DNA from: Halomicrobium mukohataei DSM 12286
Lineage (GTDB): Archaea > Halobacteriota > Halobacteria > Halobacteriales > Haloarculaceae
Reading direction: 5' to 3'
NCBI RefSeq assembly: GCF_000023965.1
Contig: NC_013202.1
Span: 2,820,001 to 2,852,000 of the forward strand
Length of the DNA stretch: 32,000 nucleotides
The notes under the pieces were generated by a model. It was given only the letters and a program-made list of their open reading frames with translations, ran no database searches and had not been told where the DNA came from. The position numbers were made by a program, and so were the translations under genes. Shown here piece by piece: positions 4,422 to 30,418 of the stretch. Positions within the stretch are counted from its first letter, which is position 1, and each line of letters begins with the position of its first letter.

Positions 4422-4640
4422 ATGGTGTCTGCACCGACGACACGGAGCGGCTGGGTGGCCTTCGCCGGTTCGATGATGGTGCTGTACGCGGCGATTCTCC
4501 TGCCGAGTTCGACGATAAATCTGGTCGACAGTCTCGTACTGGGCGCGTTCTACGGGCTATCTATGGCCGTATCTGTCGCGCTGCTGGTCGTCCTCTGGCG
4601 TGGGCTCCCAGATCTGCTCTACCGCCAGAGCGTCGCATAG
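4422..4640 (+). CDS. Small two-TM membrane protein (72 aa), function unknown; has a low-GC paralogue at 23630-23854
   Basis: ATG-started ORF with two hydrophobic helices. A gapless alignment to the 23630-23854 product gives 26 identities over the first 66 positions (hand count), which supports it as genuinely coding. Confidence 0.6.
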   Translation: MVSAPTTRSGWVAFAGSMMVLYAAILLPSSTINLVDSLVLGAFYGLSMAVSVALLVVLWRGLPDLLYRQSVA

Positions 4641-15433: not shown

Positions 15434-15470
15434 CTTTGTCAAGCGAGAGTTGCGATCGGACCGAGCCAAA

Positions 15471-15497: not shown

Positions 15498-15550
15498 GGC
15501 ACATCGGTCCCCGATAGCGCCGATACTACGATGGCCGAAAAAGGACCGTG

Positions 15551-15754
15551 TCAGTCCTCGACAGTGTAGCCGAGTGACTCGATCGTCTCGACGACCGATT
15601 CGATGGCACTGACCGGCCCCGCGACGGCCACCTCGTCGGCCGGTGCGTCGGCCGCGACCGTCTCGATACAGCACTGGTTAGCGATCTCTTCCTCGACCAT
15701 TTCCTCACAGTTCCGACAGACCATTCCGTCGACGTCGATGATGAACTTCGACAT
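15551..15754 (-). CDS. copZ: Heavy-metal-associated (HMA) domain protein, CopZ-like metallochaperone (67 aa)
   Basis: MSKFIIDVDGMVCRNCEEMVEEEI... carries the GMxCxxC metal-binding motif and has ferredoxin-like-fold length. Confidence 0.8.
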   Translation of the reverse strand: MSKFIIDVDGMVCRNCEEMVEEEIANQCCIETVAADAPADEVAVAGPVSAIESVVETIESLGYTVED

Positions 15755-15778
15755 CGACTGTCCATTCGATCCGTGGCA

Positions 15779-15812
15779 CCCTAAAAATGTAACTTTGATT
15801 ATATTTATTGGC
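15779..15812 (-). promoter_or_regulatory. AT-rich promoter region for the HMA-domain gene
   Basis: CCCTAAAAATGTAACTTTGATTATATTTATTGGC is a sharp AT-rich block. On the reverse strand, CATTTTTAGG ends about 25 nt upstream of ATG 15754. Confidence 0.3.
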
Positions 15813-15815
15813 TGT

Positions 15816-16784
15816 TCAGCCGAACCGTTCGAGGATCGTCCCGTCGCTTCCGACGGCCACGTCGGAGTAAGTGTCACGACCCAGCGCACAACCCTGTAAG
15901 GTCTTGGGAGTGTCCGTGGGCTCTTTGGTCCAGTTGTTCTCTTCGAGCGCGAAGATGTCGCCGCTGTTGCCCACGGCGAGGCCGCGACCGCCCATCCGAT
16001 CGACGGCGTGGAGTGTCTTCTCGCTCGCGTGTAACTGGAGCCAGTTGTAGCCGTTGTAGACGAAGATGGAACCGTCGTCCGCAGTCGCGTCGGCGTGGTT
16101 CCCGTCGATGGCGGCAATATCAGTCAATCCACCTTCCGCACCACGAATGCCGATCGGTGTCCAGCGACTGCCGCTGTTGCGGACGACCGTGCCACCGGTG
16201 TCGACGACGTAGACGGTCCCGTCAGCTACGTCTACCGCCGACGCACTCTCGCCACCGGTCGGCTTCGTGACCGTCTCGCGCCAGCGGACCCGTCCGTTCG
16301 ACCAGTGGCCGGTGAGCAGCTCGCCCGAACTGTTTATGAGATAGACGGTCTCGCCGTTGGCGCGACCGCTGACGGCTACGTCCGTCCAGCTACTGGTCTT
16401 TTGTCTCGGCGCACTGAGGTCGGTCACACTGCCGCCACGAACGTCGTACCGGCCGACCACGCCGCTGGAACCACAGAGCCAGAGATACCGACCGTCGTCG
16501 GTCGCGTCGACGGCAGCGAGTGGGTTTTCGCCGCCAGTCGGCCCGTCTGAGACGACCGCCTCCCACGCGTCGCCGTTCCGCGTCAGGACGAGTCCGCTCT
16601 CACCGACGGCGAAAGGACCGTCGACGCTCATCACAGCGTCCGTGAGCCCCATCCGCGTCGGTGTGTCGACGTCGATCCACCCGTGTGGTGTCTGTTGGGT
16701 CGTCTGACACCCAGCCAGTGTCGTGCCGGCAGCTCCGAGGCCGACCAGAAACTGTCGTCGGCCGACGTTGTGCTCGTCGATCAT
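15816..16784 (-). CDS. Tat-lipoprotein seven-bladed beta-propeller (Ycf48/BNR-like fold), paralogue of 8943-9848
   Basis: MIDEHNVGRRQFLVGLGAAGTTLAGCQ gives a Tat motif plus lipobox. Blade motifs are AVGESGLVL, CGSSGVVG, INSSGELL, VDTGGTVV, TADDGSIFV, AVGNSGDIF, AVGSDGTIL. The ATG overlaps the stop of the upstream DUF2182 gene (ATGA at 16781-16784). Confidence 0.75.
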   Translation of the reverse strand: MIDEHNVGRRQFLVGLGAAGTTLAGCQTTQQTPHGWIDVDTPTRMGLTDAVMSVDGPFAVGESGLVLTRNGDAWEAVVSDGPTGGENPLAAVDATDDGRYLWLCGSSGVVGRYDVRGGSVTDLSAPRQKTSSWTDVAVSGRANGETVYLINSSGELLTGHWSNGRVRWRETVTKPTGGESASAVDVADGTVYVVDTGGTVVRNSGSRWTPIGIRGAEGGLTDIAAIDGNHADATADDGSIFVYNGYNWLQLHASEKTLHAVDRMGGRGLAVGNSGDIFALEENNWTKEPTDTPKTLQGCALGRDTYSDVAVGSDGTILERFG

Positions 16785-17557
16785 GGGAAGGGGAGTCCGA
16801 TCGGCAACAACACGAGGACGCCAGCAACCGCCGAGAGCGTGCCGATCGCCGCGATCAGTTCCTCGTTCCACGGGGGCAACCGTTCGACCACGACGAATCC
16901 CGTCACCGTGACCATCCAGAACGGGTCCATCGTCCCGACCAGCACCAGGAGCAGGAAAAACGGCCAGGTCGTCGTGGCACAGTCGCGTCCGGCCACGAAT
17001 CCGTCACGAATCGCCTGTTGTGGCTCTTTTGAACCCATCTGGGCCGGAGCACAGCAGTTCCCGAGAGCGCGCCGCTTGGCGTCGGTAAACTGGTACCCAC
17101 CGATCAACAGCAGGGTACCCCCCACGACGAGGTTCGGAGCTCCAGTGACGACGGTGGCGATCCCGACCAGCGCCTCGAACAGCAGCGGAACAGTCCCGAT
17201 GACCGTCCACACCACGCTGTAGCTCAAGAGGAAGCCCGAGAGTGCAATCGTCGGCCGCTCGGTCAGTTGACGGTCGTAGTGCCTGATCGCCGGCACCATC
17301 GCGGGATACATCATCGCCGCCATCATCACGCCCCACGAGAGCAGGTACGTGGCGACACCGATCGCCCCGTCGGCCAGCGCACCCGCTTCGAGTGCGCCCG
17401 GGTCGGTCATGCCACGGGTCGAGGGCGGTGTCGGCATCGGCACCCACCCGGCGAACAGGGCGACCCACAGGGCGACTGCGGCCGCGAGCGCGCCGGTCGT
17501 GGCGTGGCGTTGATCGTCGTCGATACGTGACAGGAACTCGGTGATTGTTCTGGTCAT
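16781..17557 (-). CDS. DUF2182-like predicted metal-binding integral membrane protein
   Basis: A polytopic ORF with the Met-rich segment WGVMMAAMMYPAMVPAI, which I recall as characteristic of DUF2182. Confidence 0.7.
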   Translation of the reverse strand: MTRTITEFLSRIDDDQRHATTGALAAAVALWVALFAGWVPMPTPPSTRGMTDPGALEAGALADGAIGVATYLLSWGVMMAAMMYPAMVPAIRHYDRQLTERPTIALSGFLLSYSVVWTVIGTVPLLFEALVGIATVVTGAPNLVVGGTLLLIGGYQFTDAKRRALGNCCAPAQMGSKEPQQAIRDGFVAGRDCATTTWPFFLLLVLVGTMDPFWMVTVTGFVVVERLPPWNEELIAAIGTLSAVAGVLVLLPIGLPFP

Positions 17558-17668
17558 AGGTTGCAGTGTTGTCGAGGCGGGTGGTACGGAGCGAGGCCGA
17601 CATCTGTGGAGCGGTGAATCCTCGGCGGCGGCCGATCACACTGGCGGGGTGGTTCGGGAGCGTCTGGG

Positions 17669-18805
17669 TCAGTCACGGCTATGTCGAGCGTAGCTCGGTG
17701 TCTCTCGAACGGGTGTGAACGGACCTGGAGCGGCCGTCCGCTCGCCTATCGTTGCGATCCGGACGACGAACGAGAGCAACACCGTGAACGGGAAGACTAC
17801 GGCGGCGACCGCGAGACCGACGAGCAATTCGAGGACGAACGGGTGTGCCACCAGCGGTCGTCCGTTCGCGAAGACCAGAATCGTCAGGCCAGCGATCAGG
17901 AACGCCCCCAGCCCGGTGTAGCCGACGATCCGGGAGAGCCGCGAGAGCGCCTGCTTGATGTACAGCGCCTTGTAGTACTGTCTGAGCAGGTCGAGCGCAA
18001 TCGAGAGCTGTTTCAGCTCTTCGATCAGAGTCCGGGCCGGCGGCGAGAGGTCGTCACCGTGGTCTTCGAGGAGCTTCCGGGCCGTCTGGACGTTGTACGG
18101 GTAGTTGTCGCCCATCATCGGGACGAGCAGTTCCTCGATCGGCTGGCGCTGGCCGGTGACCCGAGACTGGATGTGAGCGACCTGCGAGCGGAGGACGGCG
18201 ACGAACGTCGCCCCGGTGTCGTGGGCTGGCCCCGTCGTCGCGTCGAGTTCGTCGGCCAGTCGTTCGACTCGTTCGTCGACCACCGCGACGAGGGCGGCCA
18301 GAAACGGTCCCGGATCGTTCGAGCTGACACCGGCGGCCGGGTCGACCGCTTCGATCTCGGCGCGGAACTGACGGACACTGTTCATCTGTTCTCGGATCTC
18401 GTCGAGCGATCCCACGACGCGGGCCACCGTCAACTGGTTCACGGAGACGACGATCGGCACGAACGAGAATAGCCCGGAGATGATCGCGGTGAACAGCCCG
18501 GTGACGAACCCGGCGTTGCTCATCCCTACGACATCGAGTCCGATCAAGGCGACGAGCGTCGCGTAGACGACACCGGTCAGCAACACCGCGATCGACCACC
18601 GGTTCCCGTCCAGCAGGAACCACCGCCGGACCGACCCCCAGCTGTGATCGTCTAGCAGGGACACGACCACGAGTACGCCCGTGACGACGACTAGGCGAGC
18701 GACGACGTAGAGGTAGTGTGCCCCCAGAGAAGTCGCCCGTACACTCAGCGTCCCGGCGACGGTAATCGCGCGGCGCACCCACTCACGCCGTGACTCGTCG
18801 CTCAT
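17669..18805 (-). CDS. Membrane protein of unknown function (378 aa): about 4 N-terminal TM, a central helical soluble domain, 2 C-terminal TM
   Basis: Clean ORF with an acidic soluble core. Its ATG overlaps the stop of the DUF389 gene (ATGA at 18802-18805). Confidence 0.65.
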   Translation of the reverse strand: MSDESRREWVRRAITVAGTLSVRATSLGAHYLYVVARLVVVTGVLVVVSLLDDHSWGSVRRWFLLDGNRWSIAVLLTGVVYATLVALIGLDVVGMSNAGFVTGLFTAIISGLFSFVPIVVSVNQLTVARVVGSLDEIREQMNSVRQFRAEIEAVDPAAGVSSNDPGPFLAALVAVVDERVERLADELDATTGPAHDTGATFVAVLRSQVAHIQSRVTGQRQPIEELLVPMMGDNYPYNVQTARKLLEDHGDDLSPPARTLIEELKQLSIALDLLRQYYKALYIKQALSRLSRIVGYTGLGAFLIAGLTILVFANGRPLVAHPFVLELLVGLAVAAVVFPFTVLLSFVVRIATIGERTAAPGPFTPVRETPSYARHSRD

Positions 18806-19869
18806 ATCACCGGCACCCCCTGAACGTTGCCCATCTCCACCTGCGCCAACACCAGTGCGAGCGCCACGACCGCGGCACAGAGTACTGCCAGTCGACGGAG
18901 CATCATACTCCGTGCACGGCGCATGTCGGCCATGCTCTCGGGGTGGTAGCCGAGGTACCAGAGGCTGATAATAGAAGCCAGGGTCATCGAGAGGATGTTG
19001 ACCAGCACGACGGCCACTTCGCCGACGATCGCTGCGGGGCGAGCCCAGGCCACGCCGACACCGATCACGCCGATCGGTGGCATCACGGCCGCAGCGATCA
19101 TCACGCCGACGAGGTCCATCGTCCCGCTCGTCGAGAGACTCAGCGCGCCCGCGAAACCGGCTCCCAGGGCCACGACGATCAAGAGGAAGTTGGGGGCCGT
19201 GTGGCTACTCACTTCCAGCAGCGTCCGGACCTCCGGGAAGTCGGAGACGATCGACGAGTACCGGACCAAGAAGGCAAAGCCAACGGCACTGATGAGCGCG
19301 ACGACGGCACCGGTCAGCTGGTACCTGACACTCTTCGTGTAGAGTCGGGGTGCATCGAGGACCGTCGCAACACTCGTCGCCATCACCGGGCCGATCAGCG
19401 GGGCGATGACCATCGCGCCGACGAGCACCGGCAGGGAGTTCAGCAACACACCGGCCGTCGCGACGATGGCGCTGATCGCAGTCATCAACAGGTAGATTAC
19501 CTGATCCGGGACCATGTTCGAGGCCTTCGAGACGAGTTCCCCCCGCGCGACTCCCTGATAGCCGAGCCCCTTGACCTCGTGGTACGGGTTCTCGCCCCGC
19601 CCGAGTCGGTCTGAGACCACTGCCTCGGGCTCGATCACGACGGTGTACAGCTCGTCGTCGATGTCGAGTTCCCTGAGCTTGGTCTGGATGTGTTCGACCG
19701 TCTGTGTCGGGAGTGGGAACTCGATGGCTGCGGTCTCCGTTCCGGCGTCGACCTCCTCGGTCAGCACGTAGTCGAGTTCGTTCTCTTCCAGTACCTCGGT
19801 GACGCGGTGGCGGGCGTTGTCCGTCAGGGTGAGAACCCGGACGACTCGCAAATCCTCTCGGGCCATCAC
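18802..19869 (-). CDS. DUF389 / TIGR00341-family membrane protein
   Basis: An N-terminal soluble domain (LRVVRVLTLTDNARH...) is followed by the hydrophobic region LLMTAISAIVATAGVLLNSLPVLVGAMVIAPLIGPVMA, which is typical of DUF389. Confidence 0.75.
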   Translation of the reverse strand: MMAREDLRVVRVLTLTDNARHRVTEVLEENELDYVLTEEVDAGTETAAIEFPLPTQTVEHIQTKLRELDIDDELYTVVIEPEAVVSDRLGRGENPYHEVKGLGYQGVARGELVSKASNMVPDQVIYLLMTAISAIVATAGVLLNSLPVLVGAMVIAPLIGPVMATSVATVLDAPRLYTKSVRYQLTGAVVALISAVGFAFLVRYSSIVSDFPEVRTLLEVSSHTAPNFLLIVVALGAGFAGALSLSTSGTMDLVGVMIAAAVMPPIGVIGVGVAWARPAAIVGEVAVVLVNILSMTLASIISLWYLGYHPESMADMRRARSMMLRRLAVLCAAVVALALVLAQVEMGNVQGVPVI

Positions 19870-20026
19870 TGGTCACCTGGCCGGGCGTCGCTCCACGCTC
19901 GTCGGTCTGTTCGTGTTTGTTGTCTCATGATAATCGGTAGCTGTGAGCTGGGACACTGCTGTGTGACCACTCGTACCGTCGACTGTGCCAGCCGTTCGCG
20001 CCGGTCGATACGGACGATTGACCGTG

Positions 20027-20587
20027 TCAGATCTGCAGGAACTGCTCTGGCGAAGGTGTTTCTTCGTCGAACGCAGCTGCATACAGCGACGCGAGCAACG
20101 ACCTGATCGCCTCGAGGCGATCACCGCCCAGTCCGTCGCAATTCGTCCCACAGCGCCCAAGAACCGGGCCGTCTCGAATCGCCACGAACGCGAGGCGACC
20201 GTGACAGTCCGGACATCGGATCGTCACGTGGTCGTACATCCACGCGACCTCGTGGTCGTACTCGCGGAGGCGATGTGCGAGTGCCAGCCAGACGTGGCGA
20301 TCTGCGGTCTGTCTCCCATCCGCGGCCCGTTTCAGGCGACGGAGCGCCAGTGCCCCACGCCGGTACAACACGTCGTCGTCCTCGTGGTGTCGTTGGTGAC
20401 ACCGCCTGAAGTGGGCGAGCAAACCCTCGTAGGAGGACTCGACTCGGCCGTTCGTCAGGAGACCGCCACGGTTGCCGGCCAACGAACCGTCCGTTACGGC
20501 CCGGTACCGGCGCCCGCGCTCGTCGTAGTGCTCTGAGTCAGTTAGCGGTGCTCCGGTGTCTGGACAAAATGCGTCGTTACCGATCAT
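20027..20587 (-). CDS. Hypothetical Cys/His-rich protein (186 aa)
   Basis: ATG-started ORF with a zinc-ribbon-like CPDCHGRL...GRCGTNCDG and a His-rich RRCHQRHHEDDD segment. I recognise no family. It is less acidic than its neighbours, hence the moderate confidence. Confidence 0.45.
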   Translation of the reverse strand: MIGNDAFCPDTGAPLTDSEHYDERGRRYRAVTDGSLAGNRGGLLTNGRVESSYEGLLAHFRRCHQRHHEDDDVLYRRGALALRRLKRAADGRQTADRHVWLALAHRLREYDHEVAWMYDHVTIRCPDCHGRLAFVAIRDGPVLGRCGTNCDGLGGDRLEAIRSLLASLYAAAFDEETPSPEQFLQI

Positions 20588-20874
20588 GGGTCGAGAGAAC
20601 TGAAGACGGGACTGTTCGAGTCAGAGTGTCATCCACGCGGACCGTGTCCCTCTGACCGAGTGCGACCACACGTTCGGCCGTGATCGATAAATAGTGGTAA
20701 CAATACCCAATTATCTATTGAGTGTCAGAGCGGGCAAGGGAGGCGTCCGGTCGGGCGGTCGGATCTGTTAGCTCACGCAGTAGGAGTCAGAGCGTCCGGG
20801 TGAGACCGTCCAGAAAGGAAATCACTATCAAGCGCGTTCGACTACCATCGCTCGTGAGCGGTTCCAGGGTGGAC

Positions 20875-21609
20875 ATGCACGTGAAAGTGCTCGACGAACG
20901 CGTCGTCGAGCGGGCGAAAGCGCGCGGACTGGACGTACTCGTCTACGCACCGCACTTCACACGACTCCCCGAGATCGAATCCCGAGCGGCGCAGTACTCC
21001 GACGACGAGCTGACGGTCGTCCCGGCAAGAGAGCTATTCACCGGCAACTGGCAACAGCGCCGCCACGTCCTCGCCGTCGGGCTCTCCGATCCGGTGCCCG
21101 ACTTTCTCACGCTAGAGGGGACGATGGAGGAACTGAAGCGTCAGGATGCCGCCGCGCTCGTTCCCCATCCCGGCTTTCTCAACGTCAGTCTCACGCGCGA
21201 GGAGATCAGGGCACACCGCGACCGGATCGACGCCGTCGAGGTGTACAACCCGAAACACTGGCCCCACCACAACCGCCGGGCGAAGGCCCTGGCGAGTGAC
21301 TTCGGTATCGAGCCGTTCACGTCGTCGTACGCCCACGTCAGGGGCACCGTCGGCGAGGCCTGGGTCGAATTCGACCGCGATATCGACGACGGCGCGGCGC
21401 TCGTCCGCGCGCTCAGAGCGGAGGCTCCCAGACGGGTGTTCCATCGAGACGGGCTCGCGCATCGGCTCCGCTGTGGCGTGGAGTTTTGCCACCTCGGCTA
21501 CGAGAACAGCTGGTCGAAAGTCGATCGCCTCCTGTTGCAGGGGACGGAGCCGACTCACCCGAACCACGTCGCCTACGGCGGTCGGTTCGACGACGTGAAG
21601 GTGTACTAA
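20875..21609 (+). CDS. PHP-domain (polymerase/histidinol phosphatase-like) metal-dependent phosphoesterase
   Basis: MHVKVLDERVVERAKARGLDVLVYAPHF...LVPHPGF...VEVYN...SSYAH follows the His/Asp ligand pattern of haloarchaeal PHP proteins. The start is uncertain: in-frame GTG codons at 20854 and 20869. The ORF-track start at 20722 gives an Arg/Ser-rich leader that looks unlikely. Confidence 0.7.
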   Translation: MHVKVLDERVVERAKARGLDVLVYAPHFTRLPEIESRAAQYSDDELTVVPARELFTGNWQQRRHVLAVGLSDPVPDFLTLEGTMEELKRQDAAALVPHPGFLNVSLTREEIRAHRDRIDAVEVYNPKHWPHHNRRAKALASDFGIEPFTSSYAHVRGTVGEAWVEFDRDIDDGAALVRALRAEAPRRVFHRDGLAHRLRCGVEFCHLGYENSWSKVDRLLLQGTEPTHPNHVAYGGRFDDVKVY

Positions 21610-22100
21610 GCGGCCGCCAGGCCGACGATCTGCATCGCCTCGGTCGGTACGTACTGCGGGAGGACGTGGACGAGGACGATCGCGACGACGACCTCGAAGG
21701 CGGTCACCACGACGGTGACGATCTCGGCGCGGTCGCTGGAGGTGGTGACGCCGGTGGGCGATCCGTACTCCTGGTCCGACAGCGGATAGAACAGCGCGAT
21801 CCCCCGCCGAGAGCCGAAGTAGTCCAGCGCGTAGTGGGTGACGACGCCGAGCCAGACCCACTGGAGGTTCGAGAAGTAGATCGGGTACGCGAGGAAGACC
21901 GCGAGCACCGGGAGGTTGTGCAGCGTCTTGCGGTGGCGGCCGAAGGCGGTGTCCACGTCGGGAAAGAGCGCGCCGAGGACGATCGGCACGGACACCTCGG
22001 CGATCGTCACGAACGTCTCTACGTCGCCGGAGGGTTCGAGGACGTAGCCCAGACCGATACTCAACAGGGCCGCGTTCAACACGTGCCCGCGTTTGTTCAT
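21606..22100 (-). CDS. DUF457 / YdjM-like membrane-bound metal-dependent hydrolase
   Basis: MNKRGHVLNAALLSIGLGYVL...FPDVDTAFGRHRKTLHNLP...THYALDYF gives the DUF457 His/Asp pattern in a small polytopic protein. It is convergent with the PHP gene and overlaps its end by 4 nt. Confidence 0.7.
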   Translation of the reverse strand: MNKRGHVLNAALLSIGLGYVLEPSGDVETFVTIAEVSVPIVLGALFPDVDTAFGRHRKTLHNLPVLAVFLAYPIYFSNLQWVWLGVVTHYALDYFGSRRGIALFYPLSDQEYGSPTGVTTSSDRAEIVTVVVTAFEVVVAIVLVHVLPQYVPTEAMQIVGLAAA

Positions 22101-22187
22101 GCAGTGGTGGCTAGCTGGCGACCGGTATAATGGTCGGCGATTTCCACCGGCGTCCCGCGTCGGTGCCGGTCGGCGTGGACGAGACCG

Positions 22188-22703
22188 TCAGGCTCGTCTC
22201 TGGACCGCGTCCCTGAGGTCCGAGAGGGCCTGTCTGGCGATCTCGCGTTTGACCGTCGTCCGATCGCCGTCGAACTCGTAGCGCTCGACCGCTGTCGACG
22301 AGTCCCCCGTCCCCCACGGTGCGGCGTAGGCGACGCCGACGTAGGCGGTGCCGACCGGGGTCTCCTCGGTCCCGCCCGATGGACCGGCGACGCCGGTGGT
22401 CGCGACGCCCCACGTCGTGTCGGCGGTGTCTCTGACGCCGCGAGCCATCTGGCGGGCGACCGGCTCGCTGACCGCGCCGGCCGCGTCGAGGACCTCGCGG
22501 TCGACCGCCAGCAGGTCCCGCTTGGCGTCGTAGGAGTACGTGACGACCGAGCGATCGAAGTAGTCACTCGACCCCGGCACGTCGGTCAGCAGCGAGCCGA
22601 TCAGGCCGCCGGTGCAGGACTCCGCGACGGCGACGGTCGCGTCGGTCTCGCGCAGTGTCTCGCCGACGCGGGCCTCGATCCCGCCGTCAGTGTCGTCTGG
22701 CAT
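22188..22703 (-). CDS. pncC: Nicotinamide-nucleotide amidohydrolase (CinA C-terminal domain family)
   Basis: VAVAESCTGGLIGSLLTDVPGSSDYF and GVAGPSGGTEETPVGT are hallmark CinA/PncC motifs. Confidence 0.85.
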   Translation of the reverse strand: MPDDTDGGIEARVGETLRETDATVAVAESCTGGLIGSLLTDVPGSSDYFDRSVVTYSYDAKRDLLAVDREVLDAAGAVSEPVARQMARGVRDTADTTWGVATTGVAGPSGGTEETPVGTAYVGVAYAAPWGTGDSSTAVERYEFDGDRTTVKREIARQALSDLRDAVQRRA

Positions 22704-22836
22704 ATCTGATCGTTGGGCGCACTCCGGTATAACGGTTCCAGCCAGATCGCACGGTCGGCAGACCGGTGGATAGTGGGTTTAAATATACGATGCGAACTAA
22801 TTGAAATATACTCTGCGATTGGTACGGACCGCAGTG

Positions 22837-23433
22837 CTACTCAACAGTGACTACAGCACCAGCCCAAATGCTACCAATTGGCTGCTGCGCGTCGTTTGGG
22901 AACCCAGCCTGAATCTGAACGTCTCCAAAGCCGTCGCCCTCAAACGTCGCGTCCAGCTCTACGTTGACGTCTTCGTCTTCAGGTTGCAAGAACTGCTTGA
23001 CAGCCTTAAATTTATACGCGTCATAGTCAACTGGCAGGCTTGATGAGTGGGTGTACTCGAAGTTCTTTTTAATATCGCTGGCAGTGAAGTCAGATGCTCT
23101 CAGTGTCGGCTGTTCTGCATTCTCCGCTTCTACTAAAACAACGAAACTATGCTTGGCAGCGAAAAGAGGGGTTGACACTTCCCAGCTGGCACTGATCGTG
23201 GTATCTTCACCATAATAAATAGTGTAGTCATCAGCTGAGAGGTCAACATTATTTGCCACCTGAGGACTCACCTGACCGCCTTGGGTAGAATCCTCTTTGC
23301 TACCAGTTTGATTGCGAGTCCCTTCTCTACGAGATCCCAAGGCAGACTGCGATACCGTTGACGCCAAACTGACACCAGCAATGGCAGTACCACTCTGTTT
23401 CAGGAACTCTCGTTTGGAAATGTTGGAGTTCAT
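22837..23433 (-). CDS. Secreted protein with a Tat-like (KR variant) signal peptide, 198 aa, unknown function
   Basis: MNSNISKREFLKQSGTAIAGVSLASTVSQSALG has an S-K-R-x-F-L-K motif plus an h-region. The mature part is Ser/Thr/Asp-rich and looks beta-rich. I prefer ATG 23433 over the GTG at 23445. Confidence 0.65.
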   Translation of the reverse strand: MNSNISKREFLKQSGTAIAGVSLASTVSQSALGSRREGTRNQTGSKEDSTQGGQVSPQVANNVDLSADDYTIYYGEDTTISASWEVSTPLFAAKHSFVVLVEAENAEQPTLRASDFTASDIKKNFEYTHSSSLPVDYDAYKFKAVKQFLQPEDEDVNVELDATFEGDGFGDVQIQAGFPNDAQQPIGSIWAGAVVTVE

Positions 23434-23629
23434 TTTTGAACACACTCACAAAATTATTTCTTATTATAATAGATCTAATTAAAAAAGAAGTAATTACCTA
23501 AGTCATAAAGTATAAATTACACTATTGTGTCTGTTGATGCTTGCTCTTTAATCACCATTAGTTTTGGAATATAACACCCTGATTATGATTTGCAGAAAGA
23601 ATTTATTGGTCGGACGCCTGGATTTTCAT

Positions 23630-23854
23630 ATGATATCGGCACCGAACTCAAAAGAAGGATGGATCACATTCGGACTACTTGTCTCGTTCATGTATTCAGC
23701 CATTATAACTCTCAATACGAATACAGGGATACTAGACTCGGCTGTATTGGGACTATTTTATGGAGGGATGATGGCTTTCTGTGTTGTAATACTGGTTTTT
23801 ATTTGGAGAGTGGGCCAATCATTTCTCATCGGCAGAGAAGAAGACTCTGTATAG
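23630..23854 (+). CDS. Small two-TM membrane protein (74 aa), low-GC paralogue of 4422-4640
   Basis: MISAPNSKEGWITFGLLVSFMYSAIITLNTNTGILDSAVLGLFYGGMMAFCVVILVFIWRVG... aligns without gaps to the 4422-4640 product from residue 1. Shared residues include MxSAP, GW, F, Y.AI, DS.VLG.FYG, MA, V, LV, WR. That alignment fixes the ATG at 23630 rather than the TTG at 23564. Confidence 0.65.
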   Translation: MISAPNSKEGWITFGLLVSFMYSAIITLNTNTGILDSAVLGLFYGGMMAFCVVILVFIWRVGQSFLIGREEDSV

Positions 23855-23946
23855 GATTTCCGCCACGGAGCTGATGTATATCTCACATAAACCAGCCAAC
23901 TACAAATTTTAATTGTGTAGAGTAGTTAGTCAGTCATAATTTCATT

Positions 23947-24093
23947 ATGTCCTACAGAACGACGATCGGCTGGTCACTTCTCACTTCCGGACTCGTCACG
24001 CTCGTCCTCGGCTTTCTCCCCGGCAGCGACCTCTTCTGGGGGATCGCCCTGCTCGTGGTCGGCGTCGCCGCCCTCCTGGTCCGCCAGATGTGA
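23947..24093 (+). CDS. Candidate 48-aa two-TM micro-protein (not in the ORF track)
   Basis: Hand translation: MSYRTTIGWSLLTSGLVTLVLGFLPGSDLFWGIALLVVGVAALLVRQM, ending at TGA 24091-24093. It has native high-GC codon usage and begins exactly where the AT-rich islet ends. The only support is ORF shape and hydrophobicity. Confidence 0.4.
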   Translation: MSYRTTIGWSLLTSGLVTLVLGFLPGSDLFWGIALLVVGVAALLVRQM

Positions 24094-24140
24094 CGACCGC
24101 AGACAGAAAGAGAAAGGGGAGTCGACGTACACTGTCGATC

Positions 24141-25262
24141 ATGGACTATCAAACGCCCCGGTTCTTCCGGGTGGTCCAGTACGCGCGGCGCGCCGATCGA
24201 GACGTGATCGACATGGTGTCCGGAAGCCCGGACTGGGACCCGCCCGCAGGTATTCGCGACGGCCTTCGGGAGTACGCCGACTTCCCGGCCGACGACTTCC
24301 AGTACCTGCCGAGCGACGGGCTCCCGGAGCTACGCGAGCACGTCGCCGCCCGGCGCGGAGTCGACCGCGACCGCGTCATCGTCACCAACGGAGCCGGCGA
24401 AGCCAACCACCTCGCGATGTTCGGCGGTCTCGAACGGTTCGGCGGCAACGAGATACTGCTGACCGATCCGGTCTTTCCCTACTACGCCGGGCGAGCGCAC
24501 TTCCTCGACGCCGATGTCGGGTTCGTACCGGTCGAGGATCGAGGCCACCTCGATCCCGAGCGCGTCCGAGAACGGGCCAGCGAGGAGACGGCGGTGATCG
24601 TCGTCAACACGCCCAACAACCCGACGGGTGCGGTGTACGACGCCGACGTGATGGAACGGCTCGTCGAGATCGCCGAAGTGAACGACGCCCTGCTGGTCTC
24701 GGACGAGGTGTACGACCACTTCGACTACACCGGCCGGTTCAGTTCGGCCGTCGAAATCGACTCGCCCAACGTCGTCGCCACCAACTCCTTCTCGAAGGCG
24801 ATGGCGATTACCGGCCTGCGGGTCGGGTACGCCATCTTCCCGCCAGAGGACGGGCCGACCGGCGACCTGCTCGAACGAGCGCGAACGCGACACATGCTCA
24901 CGAACGTCACCGGCTCGCGCCCGGCACAGTACGCCGTCCTGCGGGCGCTCAAGACGACTGGGCCCGAGTACTACGCCGACATCCGAGATCGGCTCCGCGA
25001 GCGGATCGACACGTTCTGTGAGACACTGGAAGCTGCCGGAGCGGAGTACGACCGCCCCGAGGGCGGGTTCTACGTGATGGCCCGCTTCGAGGACTACGAC
25101 GGAAGCTTCGACCACGCCTACGAACTGATCGACGAGGCCGGCGTCGCGGGAATGCCCGGCCAGGCCTTCGGCGACTCGCGCAGCGAGTGGTTCCGCTTCG
25201 CGCTGATGACACCCCGCGTCGACGAGGCGGCCGACCGACTCGCGGCGTTTTTCTCCCGATAG
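24141..25262 (+). CDS. Class I/II pyridoxal-phosphate-dependent aminotransferase (aspartate/aromatic type)
   Basis: VVNTPNNPTG and NSFSKAMAITGLRVGY (PLP-lysine motif) are present. I set the start at MDYQTPRFF (ATG 24141). Confidence 0.85.
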   Translation: MDYQTPRFFRVVQYARRADRDVIDMVSGSPDWDPPAGIRDGLREYADFPADDFQYLPSDGLPELREHVAARRGVDRDRVIVTNGAGEANHLAMFGGLERFGGNEILLTDPVFPYYAGRAHFLDADVGFVPVEDRGHLDPERVRERASEETAVIVVNTPNNPTGAVYDADVMERLVEIAEVNDALLVSDEVYDHFDYTGRFSSAVEIDSPNVVATNSFSKAMAITGLRVGYAIFPPEDGPTGDLLERARTRHMLTNVTGSRPAQYAVLRALKTTGPEYYADIRDRLRERIDTFCETLEAAGAEYDRPEGGFYVMARFEDYDGSFDHAYELIDEAGVAGMPGQAFGDSRSEWFRFALMTPRVDEAADRLAAFFSR

Positions 25263-25484
25263 CTGACCGACAGTCAGCGTCTGATACACCGACCGTGAGC
25301 GTCGAGTAGCGACGGCACTGTCACCGGACGCGGCGTCGTCGCCCTCCTCGTCGGACTGTCCCGACGAGCGTCTTCCCCGTGGTGCGCAACGACGACGGTC
25401 CGTCTCATACTGCCGGCTGTAACTGTTGCAAGAGAGTCGCGATACGGAGTCGCGAAATTCGTCACAGACGTACAGCCGGTAGTA

Positions 25485-26648
25485 TCACTCCCTGACGACG
25501 TTCGATTCGAGGTCCCGCGGGTAGTAGGTGAGTCGCTCGATCCCGTCTGCCGTGATCGCGACGGTGTCCGAGTGGCGGTAGCCGGCCTCGTCGGTGTAGA
25601 GGCCCGGCTCGATCGTGTAGACGTGGCCCGGCCGCATCTCGGCGTCGTTGCCCCGATCGATGTAGGGCGGTTCGTGGCCGTCCATCCCGATGTTGTGACC
25701 CACGTGGTGGCGCGCGAGGTCGGCGACGCCCTGCTCCTCGAAGTAGTCCCACACCGCCTGGTCGACGTGGCTGACCGAGACGCCGGGGCCCATCGCCTCG
25801 AAGGCCACGTCCTGGGCTTCGACCATCAGTTCGAAGTAGTGGGTCTGCTCGTCGCCGACTTCGCCGACGAACATCGTCCGTTCGAGTTCGGCGTAGTAGC
25901 CGTCGACGTTGGCCGTCGCGCCCGTGACGAGCACGTCTCCGGTCGCGAGCCGCTCGTTGGGCGTGTGGCCGTGCGGGAGCGCCGTCTCCGAGCCGCTGAT
26001 GTAGCCGGCGTGGACCGGACCGTCGGCCCTGGTTCGGACGGCGTACTCGGAGCCGAGCGTGTCCAGCATGGCCCGTGACGCCTGAAGCGACGCCCGCTGG
26101 CTGACCGTCGCCGGATGCGCCCCCGGCTCGGTGAGGTCTGCGAGGTGGCGGTGCCCGAGGTTCGCCCACCGCGCGGACTCCTCGATGAGGGCGACTTCGG
26201 CGTCGCTCTTTGCCTCGCGCATCCCGGCCACCCAGCCGTCGTGTTCGGTCACGTCGAGGAACTCGCTCAGCGCCGGCCCCTCGTAGCCCATCACGCCCGG
26301 CGCGCCGTCGCTGTCTGTAAGGACCGTCTCGACGCCGAGTTCCGCGATCGCCTCGGCGACCGTCGCGATCGGCTCGCCGCCGGGGTAGTCGAAGTAGCTG
26401 TGGACGGCGTCGATCCGGGGGTTGGGCTCGACGCGCTCGACTTCGAGTCGGGGCACGGTGATCTCGACGCGCCCGTCGGTGACGACCAGCGCGACCGGGC
26501 GCTCGGTCTGGATGTGATGAAAGCCGGTCAGATACTCGATGCTCGTCGCGTCGAACCAGACGGCACCGTCGGCGTCGGCCGCCGCCAGCCGGTCGCGGAC
26601 GTTCGCGAGGCGATCGCGGAACTCGCTCGCCGGAAGTGTTGTCGGCAT
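25485..26648 (-). CDS. M24-family metallopeptidase (Xaa-Pro aminopeptidase/dipeptidase-like)
   Basis: A creatinase/prolidase-type N-domain is followed by a pita-bread domain, with DVLVTGATANVDGYYAELERT, HHVGHNIGMDGHEPP and YTIEPGLY metal-ligand motifs. Confidence 0.85.
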   Translation of the reverse strand: MPTTLPASEFRDRLANVRDRLAAADADGAVWFDATSIEYLTGFHHIQTERPVALVVTDGRVEITVPRLEVERVEPNPRIDAVHSYFDYPGGEPIATVAEAIAELGVETVLTDSDGAPGVMGYEGPALSEFLDVTEHDGWVAGMREAKSDAEVALIEESARWANLGHRHLADLTEPGAHPATVSQRASLQASRAMLDTLGSEYAVRTRADGPVHAGYISGSETALPHGHTPNERLATGDVLVTGATANVDGYYAELERTMFVGEVGDEQTHYFELMVEAQDVAFEAMGPGVSVSHVDQAVWDYFEEQGVADLARHHVGHNIGMDGHEPPYIDRGNDAEMRPGHVYTIEPGLYTDEAGYRHSDTVAITADGIERLTYYPRDLESNVVRE

Positions 26649-26696
26649 ACTCGCTCCAAGAGCCCGGCCAGAAAAAAGCCACCGCCGCCGGCACTC

Positions 26697-27302
26697 TCAG
26701 AGGCGGTCCCGCGCGGCTTCGAACGCCTCGCGCGTGTTGAGGTTCTCGAAGGTCGCCATCGTCGCGTGGCGTTCGATCTCGTCGCGGTCGATCACTGCGA
26801 CGTCGAGCGCGTCCAGTGTGACGGCCACGCGACGCTGGCCGTCGTCGAGCGCCCGCCGGCAGGCGTCGGCCATCGCGTCGGCGTGATAGACCGCCTGTGT
26901 CGTCTGGAGCCACTCGTCGGGCTGTGGGACGGCACCGTCGTGGCCCGCCGCCCGTTCGAAGAGGTGTGCGACCAGAGCGGGCTCGACGAACGGCATATCG
27001 CAGGCGACGACGGCGGCGTACTCTCCCGCGACCGCGTCGAGTCCCGTCTCGATCCCGGCCAGCGGGCCGCGATCCGGGACGGGATCCAGCGCGAACGAGA
27101 CCGGCACGTCGAGGCCGTCGAGGGCCGCCGCCACGTCCCGACGCTGGTCCGCGCGGCAGTTGACCACCAGCTCGTCGACGACCCGCGCGAGACGGTCGGC
27201 GACCCGTCGAACCATCGGTGTCCCCGCGAGGTCGGCCAGCGCCTTGTCTCCGTCGCCAAAGCGCGTCGAGCGCCCGCCAGCGACGACGACGCCACTCTGC
27301 AT
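26697..27302 (-). CDS. mobA: Molybdenum cofactor guanylyltransferase
   Basis: MQSGVVVAGGRSTRFGDGDKALADLAG carries the MobA nucleotide-binding signature, and VVACDMPF is also present. The start is ATG at the complement of 27300-27302. Confidence 0.8.
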   Translation of the reverse strand: MQSGVVVAGGRSTRFGDGDKALADLAGTPMVRRVADRLARVVDELVVNCRADQRRDVAAALDGLDVPVSFALDPVPDRGPLAGIETGLDAVAGEYAAVVACDMPFVEPALVAHLFERAAGHDGAVPQPDEWLQTTQAVYHADAMADACRRALDDGQRRVAVTLDALDVAVIDRDEIERHATMATFENLNTREAFEAARDRL

Positions 27303-27403
27303 AGCTGGCCGTTCGCGGCGAGTCCTAAAGAGCGTTGGCCGCACGGTCGCGTCCAGTCACACAAGCACAACCCCTTTGCACCGGCCAGCCCAAGCAATCG
27401 CCA

Positions 27404-28360
27404 ATGTCGAAGTGCGACGCGTGTGGTAAGACCGAGAACATGCCGTACCGGTGTCACCACTGCGGGGGGACCTACTGCTCGGAGCACCGGCTGCCGGAGG
27501 CACACGACTGTCCGGGGCTGGACGACTGGGGTGACCCCGACGGCGTGTTCGACAGCGGATTCGACGACAGTGTCGACGACGGCGGAGGCCGCGGACTCGG
27601 CGACCGGCTCTCGGTCGACACCGGGCCGGGCAGCATCCTCGGGTACTTCCGCGGGAACGCGACCTACACCATGCTGGGCCTGATGTGGGTCACGTTCCTC
27701 TTGCAGCATCTGGTGGTCCTCGTGGGCATCCCGATCGGCGGGCCGACCTGGAGCGCGATCTTCACACTCCAGCCCCAGCACCCAGAGTACGTCTGGACCT
27801 GGTTCACCTCCGTGTTCTCTCACGCGCCGCTGAGCCTCGGCCACATCGCGCTGAACAGCATCGTGATCTTCTTCTTCGGCCGGATCGTCGAGGACTACGT
27901 CGGATCGAAGAAGTTCACGATCCTGTTTCTCGTCTCCGGTGCGCTGGCCGGCCTCGGTCAGATCGGGCTCTCGCACCTGCTCGTCTTCCTCGGTTACCAG
28001 CCCGGCCTCGGTGCCGGCGTTCTGGGGGCCAGCGGTGCCGGACTGGCGATCATGGGCGTCCTGACGGTCCTCAACCCCGGCCTCCGGGTCTACCTCTACT
28101 TCCTGATTCCGGTGCCGATCTGGGCGATCACCGGCTTCTACGTGATCGTCAGCGTCGCCGGCATTCTCGGCGTCGGCGGCCCCTTCACCGGCGGCAACGT
28201 CGCCGACATGGCCCACCTCGTCGGCCTCGTGATCGGGCTGTGGTACGGCAGTCAGGTCAAAGGCCAGCGGCGAACGCCCGATCAGTTGCAGTTCGGCGGC
28301 GGCGGTCGCGGACCCGGCGGTCCCGGCGGACCGGGCGGTCCCGGCCGCGGTCGGTTCTGA
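27404..28360 (+). CDS. Rhomboid-family intramembrane serine protease with an N-terminal AN1-type zinc finger and a Gly/Pro-rich tail
   Basis: CDACGKTENMPYRCHHCGGTYCSEHRLPEAHDC is an AN1 finger. The rhomboid core has GASGAGLAIMG (catalytic Ser) and ADMAHLVGL (catalytic His). The C-terminus GGGGRGPGGPGGPGGPGRGRF is encoded by a short GGN-CCN repeat. Confidence 0.85.
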   Translation: MSKCDACGKTENMPYRCHHCGGTYCSEHRLPEAHDCPGLDDWGDPDGVFDSGFDDSVDDGGGRGLGDRLSVDTGPGSILGYFRGNATYTMLGLMWVTFLLQHLVVLVGIPIGGPTWSAIFTLQPQHPEYVWTWFTSVFSHAPLSLGHIALNSIVIFFFGRIVEDYVGSKKFTILFLVSGALAGLGQIGLSHLLVFLGYQPGLGAGVLGASGAGLAIMGVLTVLNPGLRVYLYFLIPVPIWAITGFYVIVSVAGILGVGGPFTGGNVADMAHLVGLVIGLWYGSQVKGQRRTPDQLQFGGGGRGPGGPGGPGGPGRGRF

Positions 28361-29178
28361 TGGAGCCCGCTCGACCCGAGTTCGTCCCCGATCCGGCGCT
28401 CTCGCGCGGCGAGATGGAGTCGCTCCAGCGAGAGATCGCCGCCGAGGCGACGTTCGCGGACGACCTCGGCTTCGATCCGGCGGCGCTCCGGTCCGACCCC
28501 GAGCAGCACAGACTGGGCGAGGATGTCGGGGACGGCTCTGACAGCGCGCCAGCGCAGCCGCTGGTCGCGGGCGTCGACCAGGCCTTCGTCGACGACGTGG
28601 CGGTCTCGGCGGTCGTCGTCAGCCGCGGCGACGAGGTCGTCGAACGCGTCCACGCCGCCGTCGAGACGGAAATCCCCTACATTCCGGGGCTGCTCTCCTT
28701 TCGCGAGGGCGGGGCGATCCTCGCGGCGCTCGGGGAACTACGACGGACGCCGGACCTGCTGGTCGTCGACGGCAGCGGCCGCATCCACTTTCGGGAAGCC
28801 GGGCTGGCGACCCACGTCGGCGTCCTGTTCGACGTGCCCGCGATCGGCGTCGCCAAGAGCCTCCTCTGTGGCCGGCCCCGAGAGTCGCTCGACGGGAAAC
28901 TCTCGGTCGGAACGACCGTCGGAATCGAGGCCGACGACAGCGTCGAGACGGCCACGCCGGGGGCGCTGATCGGCCACGCCGTCCAGACCCGACAGTACGA
29001 CTCGCCCAAGCGCCACGTCAATCCGCTGTACGTCAGCCCCGGCCACCGCGTCGGGGCCGAGACTGTCCCCGAGCTCGTGCTCGCGACCACGGCCGGCTAC
29101 AAGCTCCCGGAGCCGACGCGGCTGGCCGACAGCGACGCCGACGAGGCGAAGGCCGCAGTGCGAGACGATCGGGCCTGA
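28360..29178 (+). CDS. nfi: Endonuclease V (deoxyinosine 3' endonuclease)
   Basis: VAGVDQAF, IPYIPGLLSFREG and VDGSGRIHFREAGLATHVG match the Nfi catalytic motifs. The ATG overlaps the rhomboid TGA by 1 nt. Confidence 0.85.
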   Translation: MEPARPEFVPDPALSRGEMESLQREIAAEATFADDLGFDPAALRSDPEQHRLGEDVGDGSDSAPAQPLVAGVDQAFVDDVAVSAVVVSRGDEVVERVHAAVETEIPYIPGLLSFREGGAILAALGELRRTPDLLVVDGSGRIHFREAGLATHVGVLFDVPAIGVAKSLLCGRPRESLDGKLSVGTTVGIEADDSVETATPGALIGHAVQTRQYDSPKRHVNPLYVSPGHRVGAETVPELVLATTAGYKLPEPTRLADSDADEAKAAVRDDRA

Positions 29179-29204
29179 CAGTCTTCACCGAATCCACGTG
29201 ACTA

Positions 29205-29522
29205 ATGTACCGGTCTGGTGAAGGGCCGGGCGTGTCCCTCCAACCAGTGTTTCTCGCCGCCGACGGCGGCCTCGACTACGATCGGATCGTCACCGAAGTG
29301 GTCCCCATCGCCAACCTGATCCTCCTGTTCGCTGCAGTCTCGCTGCCTGCATTCGTGCTCGGACTGTTGGTGGGTCCGGAACTTAGCGTACTGTTCTTTC
29401 TCGTCGGTCAGTTCGTCCTCGCAGTCGGGGTCGCCGTCGTCCTCATGTACGTGATCGTCCGGGCGCTCCAGCTCCACGAGGAACGCGAGTCGGCGGCGAC
29501 CGACGGATCGGCCGACCGGTGA
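29205..29522 (+). CDS. Hypothetical small membrane protein (105 aa)
   Basis: ATG ORF with two long hydrophobic helices and an acidic tail. No family recognised. Confidence 0.45.
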   Translation: MYRSGEGPGVSLQPVFLAADGGLDYDRIVTEVVPIANLILLFAAVSLPAFVLGLLVGPELSVLFFLVGQFVLAVGVAVVLMYVIVRALQLHEERESAATDGSADR

Positions 29523-29559
29523 CGGGAAGGTTAACTATCAGGGGGGCGAGGCTGCCGAC

Positions 29560-30378
29560 ATGACGAAGACGGCGCTGATAACGGGTGCCTCCTCTGGCAT
29601 CGGGCGGGCGACGGCCGAGGCGTTTCTCGCGGACGACTGGCAGGTGTGGGCGACGGCCCGGAACGAGGCCGACGTGGCCGGTCTCGCCGACTCGGGTGCG
29701 AAGACGGCCGAACTCGACGTGACCAACGCTCGCGAGTGCGAGCGGGTCGTCGAGACGGTCGTCGGGGCCGAGGGACGCATCGACTGTCTGGTCAACAACG
29801 CGGGCTACGGCCAGTACGGCCCCCTCGAAGACGTGACGACGGCACAGCTCCACGAGCAGTTCGACGTGAACGTCTACGGCCCCCACCGACTCACGCGGGC
29901 GGTCCTGCCTCACATGCGGGACCGCGAGGACGGCACGATCGTCAACGTCTCCAGCGTCAACGGCCGGATCGCGACGCCGGGGGCCGGAGCCTACGCCGGC
30001 TCGAAGTTCGCCCTCGAAGCGATGAGCGACTCGCTGCGAGCCGAGGTCGCCGACTTCGGCGTCGACGTGGTCCTGGTCGAGCCCGGTCCCGTGGAGACGA
30101 ACTTCGTCGACCGGGCGGGCGAGGCGATGGCCGACACGGACGCCTCCGGCGCGTACGGGTGGCTCTACGAGCTCTACGAGGACACCGCGCTGGTCAGCGA
30201 GAACGCGGTGTCGGTCTCGCCAGAAGCGGTCGCACACGCGATCCGTGACGCCGCCGTGACCACCGATCCACGGCCGCGATACCCCGTCGGCCAGTTCGCT
30301 CGCGTCGCCACCCTCGCCAGCCACCTCCCGGGTCGCTGGCGGGACCTGGCGGTCGCCGTCCTGCGGAAGCTCGTCTGA
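29560..30378 (+). CDS. Short-chain dehydrogenase/reductase (SDR) family oxidoreductase
   Basis: Contains the TGASSGIGRA cofactor motif, NNAG, and the S...YAGSK catalytic triad region. Confidence 0.9.
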   Translation: MTKTALITGASSGIGRATAEAFLADDWQVWATARNEADVAGLADSGAKTAELDVTNARECERVVETVVGAEGRIDCLVNNAGYGQYGPLEDVTTAQLHEQFDVNVYGPHRLTRAVLPHMRDREDGTIVNVSSVNGRIATPGAGAYAGSKFALEAMSDSLRAEVADFGVDVVLVEPGPVETNFVDRAGEAMADTDASGAYGWLYELYEDTALVSENAVSVSPEAVAHAIRDAAVTTDPRPRYPVGQFARVATLASHLPGRWRDLAVAVLRKLV

Positions 30379-30418
30379 CCGGCCCGGCGTTTTTGCGACT
30401 CGGGCACGTCGTGTCGGT

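Follow-up and report, generated by a model that had tools for sequence, protein, structure and literature searches.

How a small AT-rich islet with two genes and no mobility gene of its own came to lie in a G+C-rich haloarchaeal chromosome is the question raised by a locus of Halomicrobium mukohataei DSM 12286. The locus belongs to a 32,000-nucleotide stretch of the chromosome (NC_013202.1, positions 2,820,001 to 2,852,000), which we call the window and number from its first nucleotide. The islet occupies 22741..23946, with an AT-rich core at 22771-23946, and lies in a housekeeping neighbourhood exactly between two start codons, those of pncC and of a gene for a 48-aa membrane protein. It carries a gene for a 198-aa acidic protein on the minus strand (22837..23433) and, on the plus strand, orf74 (23630..23854), the product of which is a 74-aa membrane protein with two hydrophobic segments. 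We consider it likely that the islet is a horizontally acquired, non-autonomous accessory cassette and that these two genes are a conserved pair carried by it.

Composition of the islet and its empty site

The islet was the only G+C trough in the window. The G+C content of its core was 0.428, compared to 0.664 in the remaining window (z = -7.5), and that of the whole inserted or replaced segment was 0.434. In 500-bp windows the values ranged from 0.38 to 0.50 inside the islet; those outside had a mean of 0.664, a standard deviation of 0.031 and a minimum of 0.582, with none below 0.58. In 200-bp windows the G+C content fell from 0.63-0.78 to 0.29-0.53 at about 22700-23950 and then returned to 0.56-0.71. 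At third codon positions (GC3) it was 0.50 in the gene for the 198-aa protein and 0.41 in orf74, compared to 0.86-0.93 in six neighbouring genes. The composition and the codon usage of the islet are foreign and are not a by-product of its protein content. A preliminary description of this DNA had noted a sharp AT-rich islet, and both the sliding-window composition and the codon deviation measured by GC3 agreed with it. Its hand counts of G+C in single lines followed the same trend but did not hold line for line, as our own counts were 14-31/60 inside the islet and 36-45/60 just outside. The two divergent genes that it had reported were found as open reading frames (ORFs), together with the very AT-rich spacer of 196 bp between them (23434-23629, G+C 0.286).

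An abrupt change of composition could also be produced by a chimeric assembly or by contaminating DNA, an alternative mentioned in the preliminary description that has nothing further in its favour. We could exclude it for all practical purposes because the junctions were repeated in other assemblies. The stretch 22704-24089 (1,386 bp, including both junctions) was identical in the complete chromosome CP045142.1 at NCBI and in an independent read-set assembly. The order of the genes over the two junctions was unchanged in a second such assembly, and the left junction was present at 100% identity in a third. The independent assemblies were those of Logan for the read sets SRR017869, SRR017870 and SRR5381736, and the sequence matched wherever it was compared.

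Evidence for a gain of the segment came from H. katesii DSM 19301, the nearest relative in a pncC scan of one genome per GTDB species, whose PncC protein was 98% identical to that of H. mukohataei. BLASTN aligned the window to the H. katesii locus at 95.9% identity over 20867-22740 and at 97.8% over 23947-31031, with no homology between the two blocks. The H. katesii locus has 116 bp between the start of the 48-aa gene and the start codon of pncC; the islet is missing and 79 unalignable bp occupy its place. In the outgroups, a metagenome-assembled genome (locus L006) and several Haloarcula species, the two genes are 63-79 bp apart. Because H. katesii and the outgroups are all compact at this site, the compact spacer is the ancestral state, and the lineage of H. 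mukohataei has gained the 1.2-kb segment. Judged from these alignments, the islet is a lineage-specific insertion that occurred after the split from H. katesii. The empty site, the compact spacers of the outgroups and the foreign GC3 support the recent horizontal acquisition proposed earlier. Synteny at the pncC junction gave the opposite of what an ancient inheritance would require, as the relatives lacked the segment instead of sharing it with the same composition. The coding blocks of 100 bp on each side of the islet were 98-100% identical to those of H. katesii. They thus gave no hint that a long stretch had been recombined in from a divergent donor, and a tract imported from a divergent relative was ruled out. 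The difference from the empty site involved the whole intergenic region beyond 22740 and extended beyond the AT-rich part.

The gene pair and its relatives

The 198-aa protein (WP_126967065.1, annotated as a hypothetical protein and read from an ATG) is unlikely to be a chance ORF, the random chance of 198 open codons at the composition of the islet being about 5e-5. It consists of a signal of the twin-arginine translocation (Tat) type and a 140-aa immunoglobulin (Ig)-like beta-sandwich, joined by a linker of about 25 aa. Its isoelectric point (pI) of 4.38 and its content of 15% Asp and Glu resemble those of native haloarchaeal proteins. A family of 15 proteins emerged from an exhaustive HMMER search across 1.84 billion representatives; the best relative was 47% identical to the 198-aa protein and the rest 26-37%. 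In a word-indexed search of 5.8 billion proteins it matched only itself. All family members but one were 164-235 aa long, and the layout was common to them except in N-terminally truncated copies.

The N-terminus of the family is charged and contains an S/T-R-R-x-[FVI]-[LV]-[KR]-like motif, followed by a weakly hydrophobic stretch that ends in an Ala-rich segment. There is no lipobox cysteine in the family. An acidic or polar linker comes next, and then the all-beta domain of about 140 aa, which usually ends in L-x-[VI]-E. The twin arginine was found in the S/T-R-R-x-F/V-L-K-like motif of 10 of 14 relatives, and the protein of the window (motif SKREFLK, with a mildly hydrophobic stretch behind) and one relative had KR in this position. 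A lysine in the twin-arginine motif has been reported to be tolerated in a minority of Tat substrates (PMC3387779), so that Tat export of the 198-aa protein seems likely. On the Kyte-Doolittle scale, its hydrophobic region reached a maximum of 1.15, which is unlike a transmembrane segment. A Pfam search of 14 family members at E <= 1 gave weak matches to TAT_signal in two of the 14 and nothing beyond these.

An AlphaFold2 model, built on a 14-sequence alignment, had a per-residue confidence (pLDDT) mostly above 88 from residue 61 and nine strands in residues 60-197. Foldseek searches against the PDB and viral models returned generic Ig-like sandwiches (E about 1e-4, template modelling (TM) score 0.3-0.58, identity 6-16%), among them cohesins, arrestin N-lobes, complement MG domains, pilins, TTHA1873 and YcnI. 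W84 and G177 are the sole invariant residues of the family, and no catalytic or metal-binding signature was seen. A copper-binding function like that of YcnI was dropped, as the family has no invariant histidines. A PDB sequence-profile search with the 198-aa protein gave a non-significant best match (E 0.52), and searches of NCBIfam, PHROGs and PADLOC with both islet proteins and their relatives gave no match.

The small gene orf74 was missing from the gene list of CP045142, and among the exact-sequence matches retrieved, its product appeared as a Logan gene call and under no NCBI accession. It is nevertheless a real gene, because its homologues adjoin homologues of the 198-aa gene. The AlphaFold2 model of its product was a helical hairpin (H8-29 and H34-73, pLDDT 80). 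The closest beta-sandwich homologue (in locus L095) had a divergent neighbour of 73 aa that was 27% identical to the orf74 product over 63 ungapped residues (E 9e-9). The partners were interlinked by phmmer at E 1e-4 to 1e-10, compared to values of at least 0.004 for two unrelated small membrane ORFs used as controls. BLASTP gave no alignment between the orf74 product and the 61-aa neighbour in locus L085; these were linked through phmmer chains and a hidden Markov model (HMM). The HMM, built from seven partners, was run against 12,598 ORFs, namely those of the window and of the non-redundant loci fetched; it recovered the partners and one extra ORF, and the next best match had an E of 0.95. 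The second transmembrane segment of the partners contained a conserved small-residue motif, G-x-x-[FYL]-G. A holin-like role for orf74 was rejected, as its charged C-terminal tail is not conserved in the partners.

Among the same ORFs, an HMM of the beta-sandwich family found exactly ten genes, and eight of these had a partner within 18-208 bp, in divergent (four), convergent (three) or tandem (one) orientation. The divergent pairs were those of the window (partner of 74 aa, gap of 196 bp), L095 (73 aa, 102 bp), L085 (61 aa, 127 bp) and L097 (72 aa, 90 bp). The convergent ones were two copies in L089 (64 aa with a gap of 18 bp, and 63 aa with a gap of 208 bp) and the pair in L094 (63 aa, 208 bp); the tandem pair was that of L098 (72 aa, 72 bp). 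That adjacency is kept through three orientations is strong evidence for a functional pair, and we suggest that the conserved pair of beta-sandwich and hairpin genes acts as one unit.

The neighbours of the pair differed completely between the loci. The copy in the window lies amid housekeeping genes, and the pair in L085-88 lies with an Na/Ca exchanger gene and a saccharopine-dehydrogenase-like gene, with carotenoid genes and two genes of an MNT/HepT pair within a few kb. The two copies in L089 were in a cluster of IS1595/IS4-type transposase genes, near DpdA and AAA_5 genes. A subtilase gene adjoins the copy of Haloarcula salinisoli (L092), the copy in L093 is in an Orc/Cdc6 and PolD region, that in L094 adjoins a ParA gene on a 132-kb plasmid of Haloarcula salina, and that in L097 is in the context of a TctBC transporter. 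L089 is a metagenomic contig on which the two copies are diverged from each other and lie about 4 kb apart, at 3320-4268 and 8001-8759. Its transposase genes were of the IS1595, IS4 (DDE_Tnp_1) and IS240-like types, and one of its hairpins was identical to that on the H. salina plasmid.

In these differing contexts the module almost always formed a local trough, with a G+C content of 0.47-0.55 compared to 0.56-0.66 in the flanks in most cases. The values for the beta-sandwich gene and its flank were 0.49 and 0.66 in the window, 0.47 and 0.59 in L085, 0.49 and 0.60 in L092, 0.55 and 0.63 in L093, 0.49 and 0.56 in L094, and 0.50 and about 0.67 in L097. In L089, where the whole region is rich in insertion sequences (IS), they were 0.50 and 0.51, and in L098 the gene and its partner had 0.63 and 0.69 within flanks of 0.72-0.78. 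Family members in different hosts have a similar G+C content (47-55%) at a protein identity of 25-47%, which is what might be expected of an ancient, vertically inherited pair whose AT-richness was maintained by selection and which H. katesii has lost. We believe this to be very improbable. Neither H. katesii nor any outgroup locus has the segment, the outgroup loci having the compact spacer, and a family with 15 representatives among 1.84 billion is extremely rare. Besides, the G+C content of the L098 pair indicates that the proteins do not require AT-rich genes and that the low G+C is dispensable. Selection for AT-richness, the second explanation in the preliminary description, is therefore disfavoured, and the L098 pair would argue for the time of residence in the host as the main variable.

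The extra ORF found by the partner HMM is in the window itself. It encodes a 72-aa two-helix membrane protein on the plus strand (4422..4640; WP_015763883.1, annotated as hypothetical) that was 39% identical to the orf74 product (E 2e-17; HMM E 1.4e-7) and was the only match among the 12,598 ORFs that had not been used to train the HMM. It lies between ftsZ (3165-4334) and secE/nusG (4747-5368), as identified by Pfam. Its G+C content was 0.62, its GC3 of 0.75 was below that of the neighbouring genes, and no beta-sandwich gene adjoins it. The paralogue could be an older and partly ameliorated remnant of the module, an orphan partner, or a housekeeping ancestor of the partner family. Next to this locus, a 182-bp tandem repeat (5301-5860; 3.1 copies, 98% identity, no Rfam match) starts inside the 3' end of nusG/spt5 (4931-5368), with the result that the end of the gene and the region downstream of it are triplicated.

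Source of the islet and its way into the chromosome

The preliminary description had stated that no integrase, transposase, tRNA or obvious terminal inverted repeats flank the islet, and this was borne out. There was no integrase or transposase among the called genes, which cover 12188-32000 of the window, and no tRNA in the 32 kb. A classical integrative island was not recognized, as neither a mobility gene in that range nor a tRNA nor end repeats were found; nor was an integron cassette, as there was no terminal hairpin-forming (attC-type) repeat and no integrase nearby. Miniature inverted-repeat transposable element, IS and integron-cassette readings were all dropped on the lack of target-site duplications, terminal repeats and a common non-coding motif. 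What the segment does have is a deviant composition, an empty orthologous site, and homologues in unrelated contexts and on mobile replicons. At its left edge (22778..22818), directly 3' of the 198-aa gene, a repeat search found two direct repeats of 18 nt (TTTAAATATACGATGCGA and TTGAAATATACTCTGCGA) with 23 nt between them, and no counterpart of them was found in the other modules. The remaining options for the entry route are illegitimate recombination and a double crossover through very short homology at the two gene starts.

The preliminary description had suggested a Haloquadratum-like, nanohaloarchaeal or viral donor. The G+C content of the islet genes (41-49%) is indeed near the 48% reported for Haloquadratum walsbyi (PMC2841640), and the acidic proteins imply a halophilic source; the 198-aa protein, being acidic (pI 4.38, 15% Asp and Glu), points to a halophile of the salt-in type. 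However, a direct transfer from such a low-GC genome is unlikely in our opinion, as we found no direct support for it. A distant-mode BLASTN search of the islet and a TBLASTN search of the 198-aa protein against phage and plasmid collections gave no match, and neither did TBLASTN searches of two relatives (P0021 and P0004) against plasmids. Scans of IMG/VR contigs (alignments A5 and A4; P0008 and P0018) detected no relatives, and scans of JGI metagenome contigs with alignments A5 and A4 gave no match. The family was absent from the phage, IMG/VR and PLSDB data searched. An origin as a virus-derived gene found nothing in the 50,697 phage records of INPHARED, in PHROGs or in IMG/VR, at the nucleotide or protein level, and the fold matches in BFVD were generic Ig-like ones. 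The only named organisms with relatives were high-GC Haloarculaceae, namely Halomicrobium, Haloarcula salinisoli and the H. salina plasmid, and the copies were in G+C troughs there as well. That the relatives checked were almost always in a trough of a higher-GC genome suggests a shared mobile pool, and the Tat-like signal and the pI of 4.4 argue for a haloarchaeal one.

Several observations weigh against the islet being a recently acquired cassette with a conserved functional pair. It has no target-site duplications and no terminal inverted or direct repeats at its ends, and no att-like or other non-coding motif is common to the modules. The family members in L092 and L093 have no partner. 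The nearest relative is only 47% identical and comes from a 1.2-kb metagenome contig. The Tat motif of the copy in the window is KR and not RR, and the fold yields no functional clue because the structural matches are generic. Finally, the stretch 22704-22740 is only about 65% identical to that of H. katesii, and a simple insertion predicts far less divergence.

This last stretch is the promoter region of pncC, which was kept at the left flank. The gene itself (22188..22703, minus strand, GC3 0.90) encodes a nicotinamide-nucleotide amidohydrolase of the CinA family (PF02464, 9e-55; TIGR00199). Its promoter region (22704..22740, minus strand) contains the motif TGGAACCGTTAT...CCAACG with a TATA-like box, GGTATAAC, at 22726-22733, and the box lies within a motif conserved across Haloarculaceae, TGGAACC[A/G]TTAT...CCAACG. 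The box had been described before as intact, which is correct. The stretch differed from H. katesii at 13 of its 37 sites, all in non-motif positions, next to coding DNA that was 99-100% identical, and this divergence far exceeds that of nearby intergenic DNA. The promoter may have turned over fast once the islet was inserted, or a very short tract may have been replaced.

At the right flank, the AT-rich end of the islet (23855..23946, as defined by the junction alignment) abuts the start codon of the native 48-aa membrane ORF (23947..24093, plus strand, GC3 0.86), on which the preliminary description was silent. The ORF is conserved across Haloarculaceae immediately upstream of pncC, with BLASTN matches in H. 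katesii, L006 and Haloarcula loci, and its protein cluster had members in H. katesii and strain LC1Hm. The gene of a class I/II aminotransferase lies downstream of it (24141-25262), within a longer GTG-start ORF (24090-25262) that the stop codon of the 48-aa ORF overlaps. The 48-aa ORF is probably a genuine small gene that is co-transcribed with the aminotransferase gene. Its ancestral upstream region has been replaced by islet DNA; since the insertion its transcription would start in the islet or reach it from orf74 by read-through, and the aminotransferase gene behind it probably has islet DNA as its upstream region, too.

Two further differences from H. katesii were noted in the window. Synteny ends at 20866/20867 (11837/11838 in the H. 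katesii locus, L005), just upstream of the start of a PHP_C-domain gene, and nothing in positions 1-20866 matched the 8.7 kb of H. katesii DNA compared beyond this breakpoint, which indicates a second and larger rearrangement or indel breakpoint. At about 31031-31034 (2716-2801 in L005), H. katesii had about 84 extra bp, an indel between blocks that were 98% identical.

Possible roles and comparison with known systems

It is likely that the cassette entered the intergenic region between pncC and the 48-aa gene after the two species had split, and that its composition has not yet drifted toward that of the host. Its two genes would be read outward from the spacer (23434..23629), which we infer to be a bidirectional promoter region. 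A TATA-like element, AATTTATT, is located at 23600-23607, about 27 nt before the ATG of orf74. The 198-aa gene has another, TTATAATAAG (minus strand, 23469-23460), about 32 nt ahead of its ATG. The spacer thus probably supplies both promoters, and the archaeal TATA spacing would imply near-leaderless divergent transcripts. The spacer also contains an imperfect palindrome (23452-23495). Rfam gave no match in the islet at E <= 1 or in the whole window at gathering thresholds. Tat would export the 198-aa precursor, which would probably be cleaved behind its Ala-rich segment; the product outside the cell would be soluble, an Ig-like beta-sandwich of about 15 kDa. The 74-aa hairpin would sit in the membrane, probably with both ends in the cytoplasm and an external loop of about five residues. 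It would most likely work together with the exported protein, by protecting the producer or by docking the protein, and the resulting role may be an accessory function at the cell surface or in competition. The pair itself would move within the flexible, low-GC part of the gene pool of Haloarculaceae and their haloarchaeal relatives, carried by plasmids, IS-rich islands and intergenic sites of chromosomes, and it would depend for this on host recombination or on neighbouring elements and not on genes of its own. The export, the cleavage, the promoters, the coupling of the two proteins and the competition role are all inferred.

One form of such a role would be a secreted toxin like an archaeocin or halocin, accompanied by a small membrane immunity protein, with the 72-aa paralogue as an orphan immunity gene. 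An exported protein stands beside a small membrane protein here, and the pairing is conserved despite changes of orientation. The distribution is patchy and strain-specific, with plasmids and IS involved; MNT/HepT toxin-antitoxin, DpdA and AAA_5 genes are among the neighbours elsewhere; and an unpaired paralogue is found in the core genome. However, the islet proteins had no Pfam or NCBIfam match to known halocin families (the halocin C8 family being covered only if it is in the Pfam library) and no named homologues, and PADLOC defence models did not match either of them or six relatives. The sandwich is generic and has no pore-forming or enzymatic signature, and its two invariant residues do not look catalytic. 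A toxin with its immunity protein is a plausible but tentative possibility that we would not favour at present.

A non-antagonistic role, in which an adhesin-like or cohesin-like protein binds at the surface and is held at the membrane or signals through the hairpin, seems to us likewise rather doubtful. The best structural neighbours were cohesins, pilin and adhesin domains, complement MG domains and arrestin-like sandwiches, and the G-x-x-[FYL]-G motif of the partner would suit helix packing. However, all these structural matches were weak and generic, the external loop of the partners (about 5-8 residues) offers little surface for docking, and the 198-aa protein has no lipobox, PGF-CTERM or other anchor. 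More speculatively, and with little confidence, the pair might be an unrecognized archaeal module for competition between strains or self-recognition, which moves as an integrase-free cassette and consists of a Tat-exported effector and a membrane protector, the 72-aa paralogue being an orphan protector.

Whatever its role, the cassette that we propose is of interest in several respects. The acquisition itself is an ordinary event, as low-GC foreign DNA is well documented in haloarchaeal chromosomes. Nevertheless, this is a very clean and minimal case, with two genes, no mobility machinery and an empty site in a relative about 97% identical, and it is suited to studying how integrase-free cassettes enter haloarchaeal genomes. 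It also exposes two unnamed and undescribed protein families that travel as a pair, neither of which has a Pfam model; the small partner had no NCBI accession that we could find for orf74, and it has a paralogue in the core genome, next to ftsZ and secE. If the pair should be a secreted effector with its protector, the few antagonism systems known in archaea would be joined by a new class of proteins, and H. mukohataei, which has the islet, and H. katesii, which lacks it, would make a natural test pair.

Among known domains, the nine-strand sandwich of about 140 residues resembles Ig-like, cohesin-like and arrestin-like ones (cohesins 2jh2 and 5nrk, TTHA1873 7wwo, YcnI 7me6 and pilin domains; Foldseek E 1e-4 to 1e-3). 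However, the identity to these was 6-15% at a TM score of 0.3-0.58, there was no PDB-sequence or Pfam profile match, and the conserved metal-binding histidines of YcnI are lacking. The likeness to bacteriocin or halocin genes with small membrane immunity genes lies in the arrangement, a signal-bearing protein beside a small multi-helix membrane protein, and in mobility, patchiness and an unpaired paralogue of the small gene elsewhere in the genome. The islet pair differs from them in having no similarity of sequence or fold and in the Ig-like exported domain. Compared to haloarchaeal Tat-exported proteins (Szabo and Pohlschroder 2012, PMC3387779), the 198-aa protein has K-R instead of R-R and no lipobox; it shares with them, as far as its sequence tells, the charged motif, the weakly hydrophobic stretch, the Ala-rich cleavage region and the acidic mature protein.

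As a piece of DNA, the islet can be set beside the low-GC islands of haloarchaea. Low-GC, IS-associated foreign DNA is a recognized feature of their chromosomes, and the 53-kb region of 50% G+C in Haloferax volcanii is an example (Hartman et al. 2010, PMC2841640). The islet is only 1.2 kb long, with two genes and without recombinase, transposase, tRNA target or flanking repeats. However, it shares with these islands the abrupt drop of G+C content in a genome of about 66%, the strain-specific presence, cargo genes without a known function, and the occurrence of relatives on plasmids and in DNA rich in IS.

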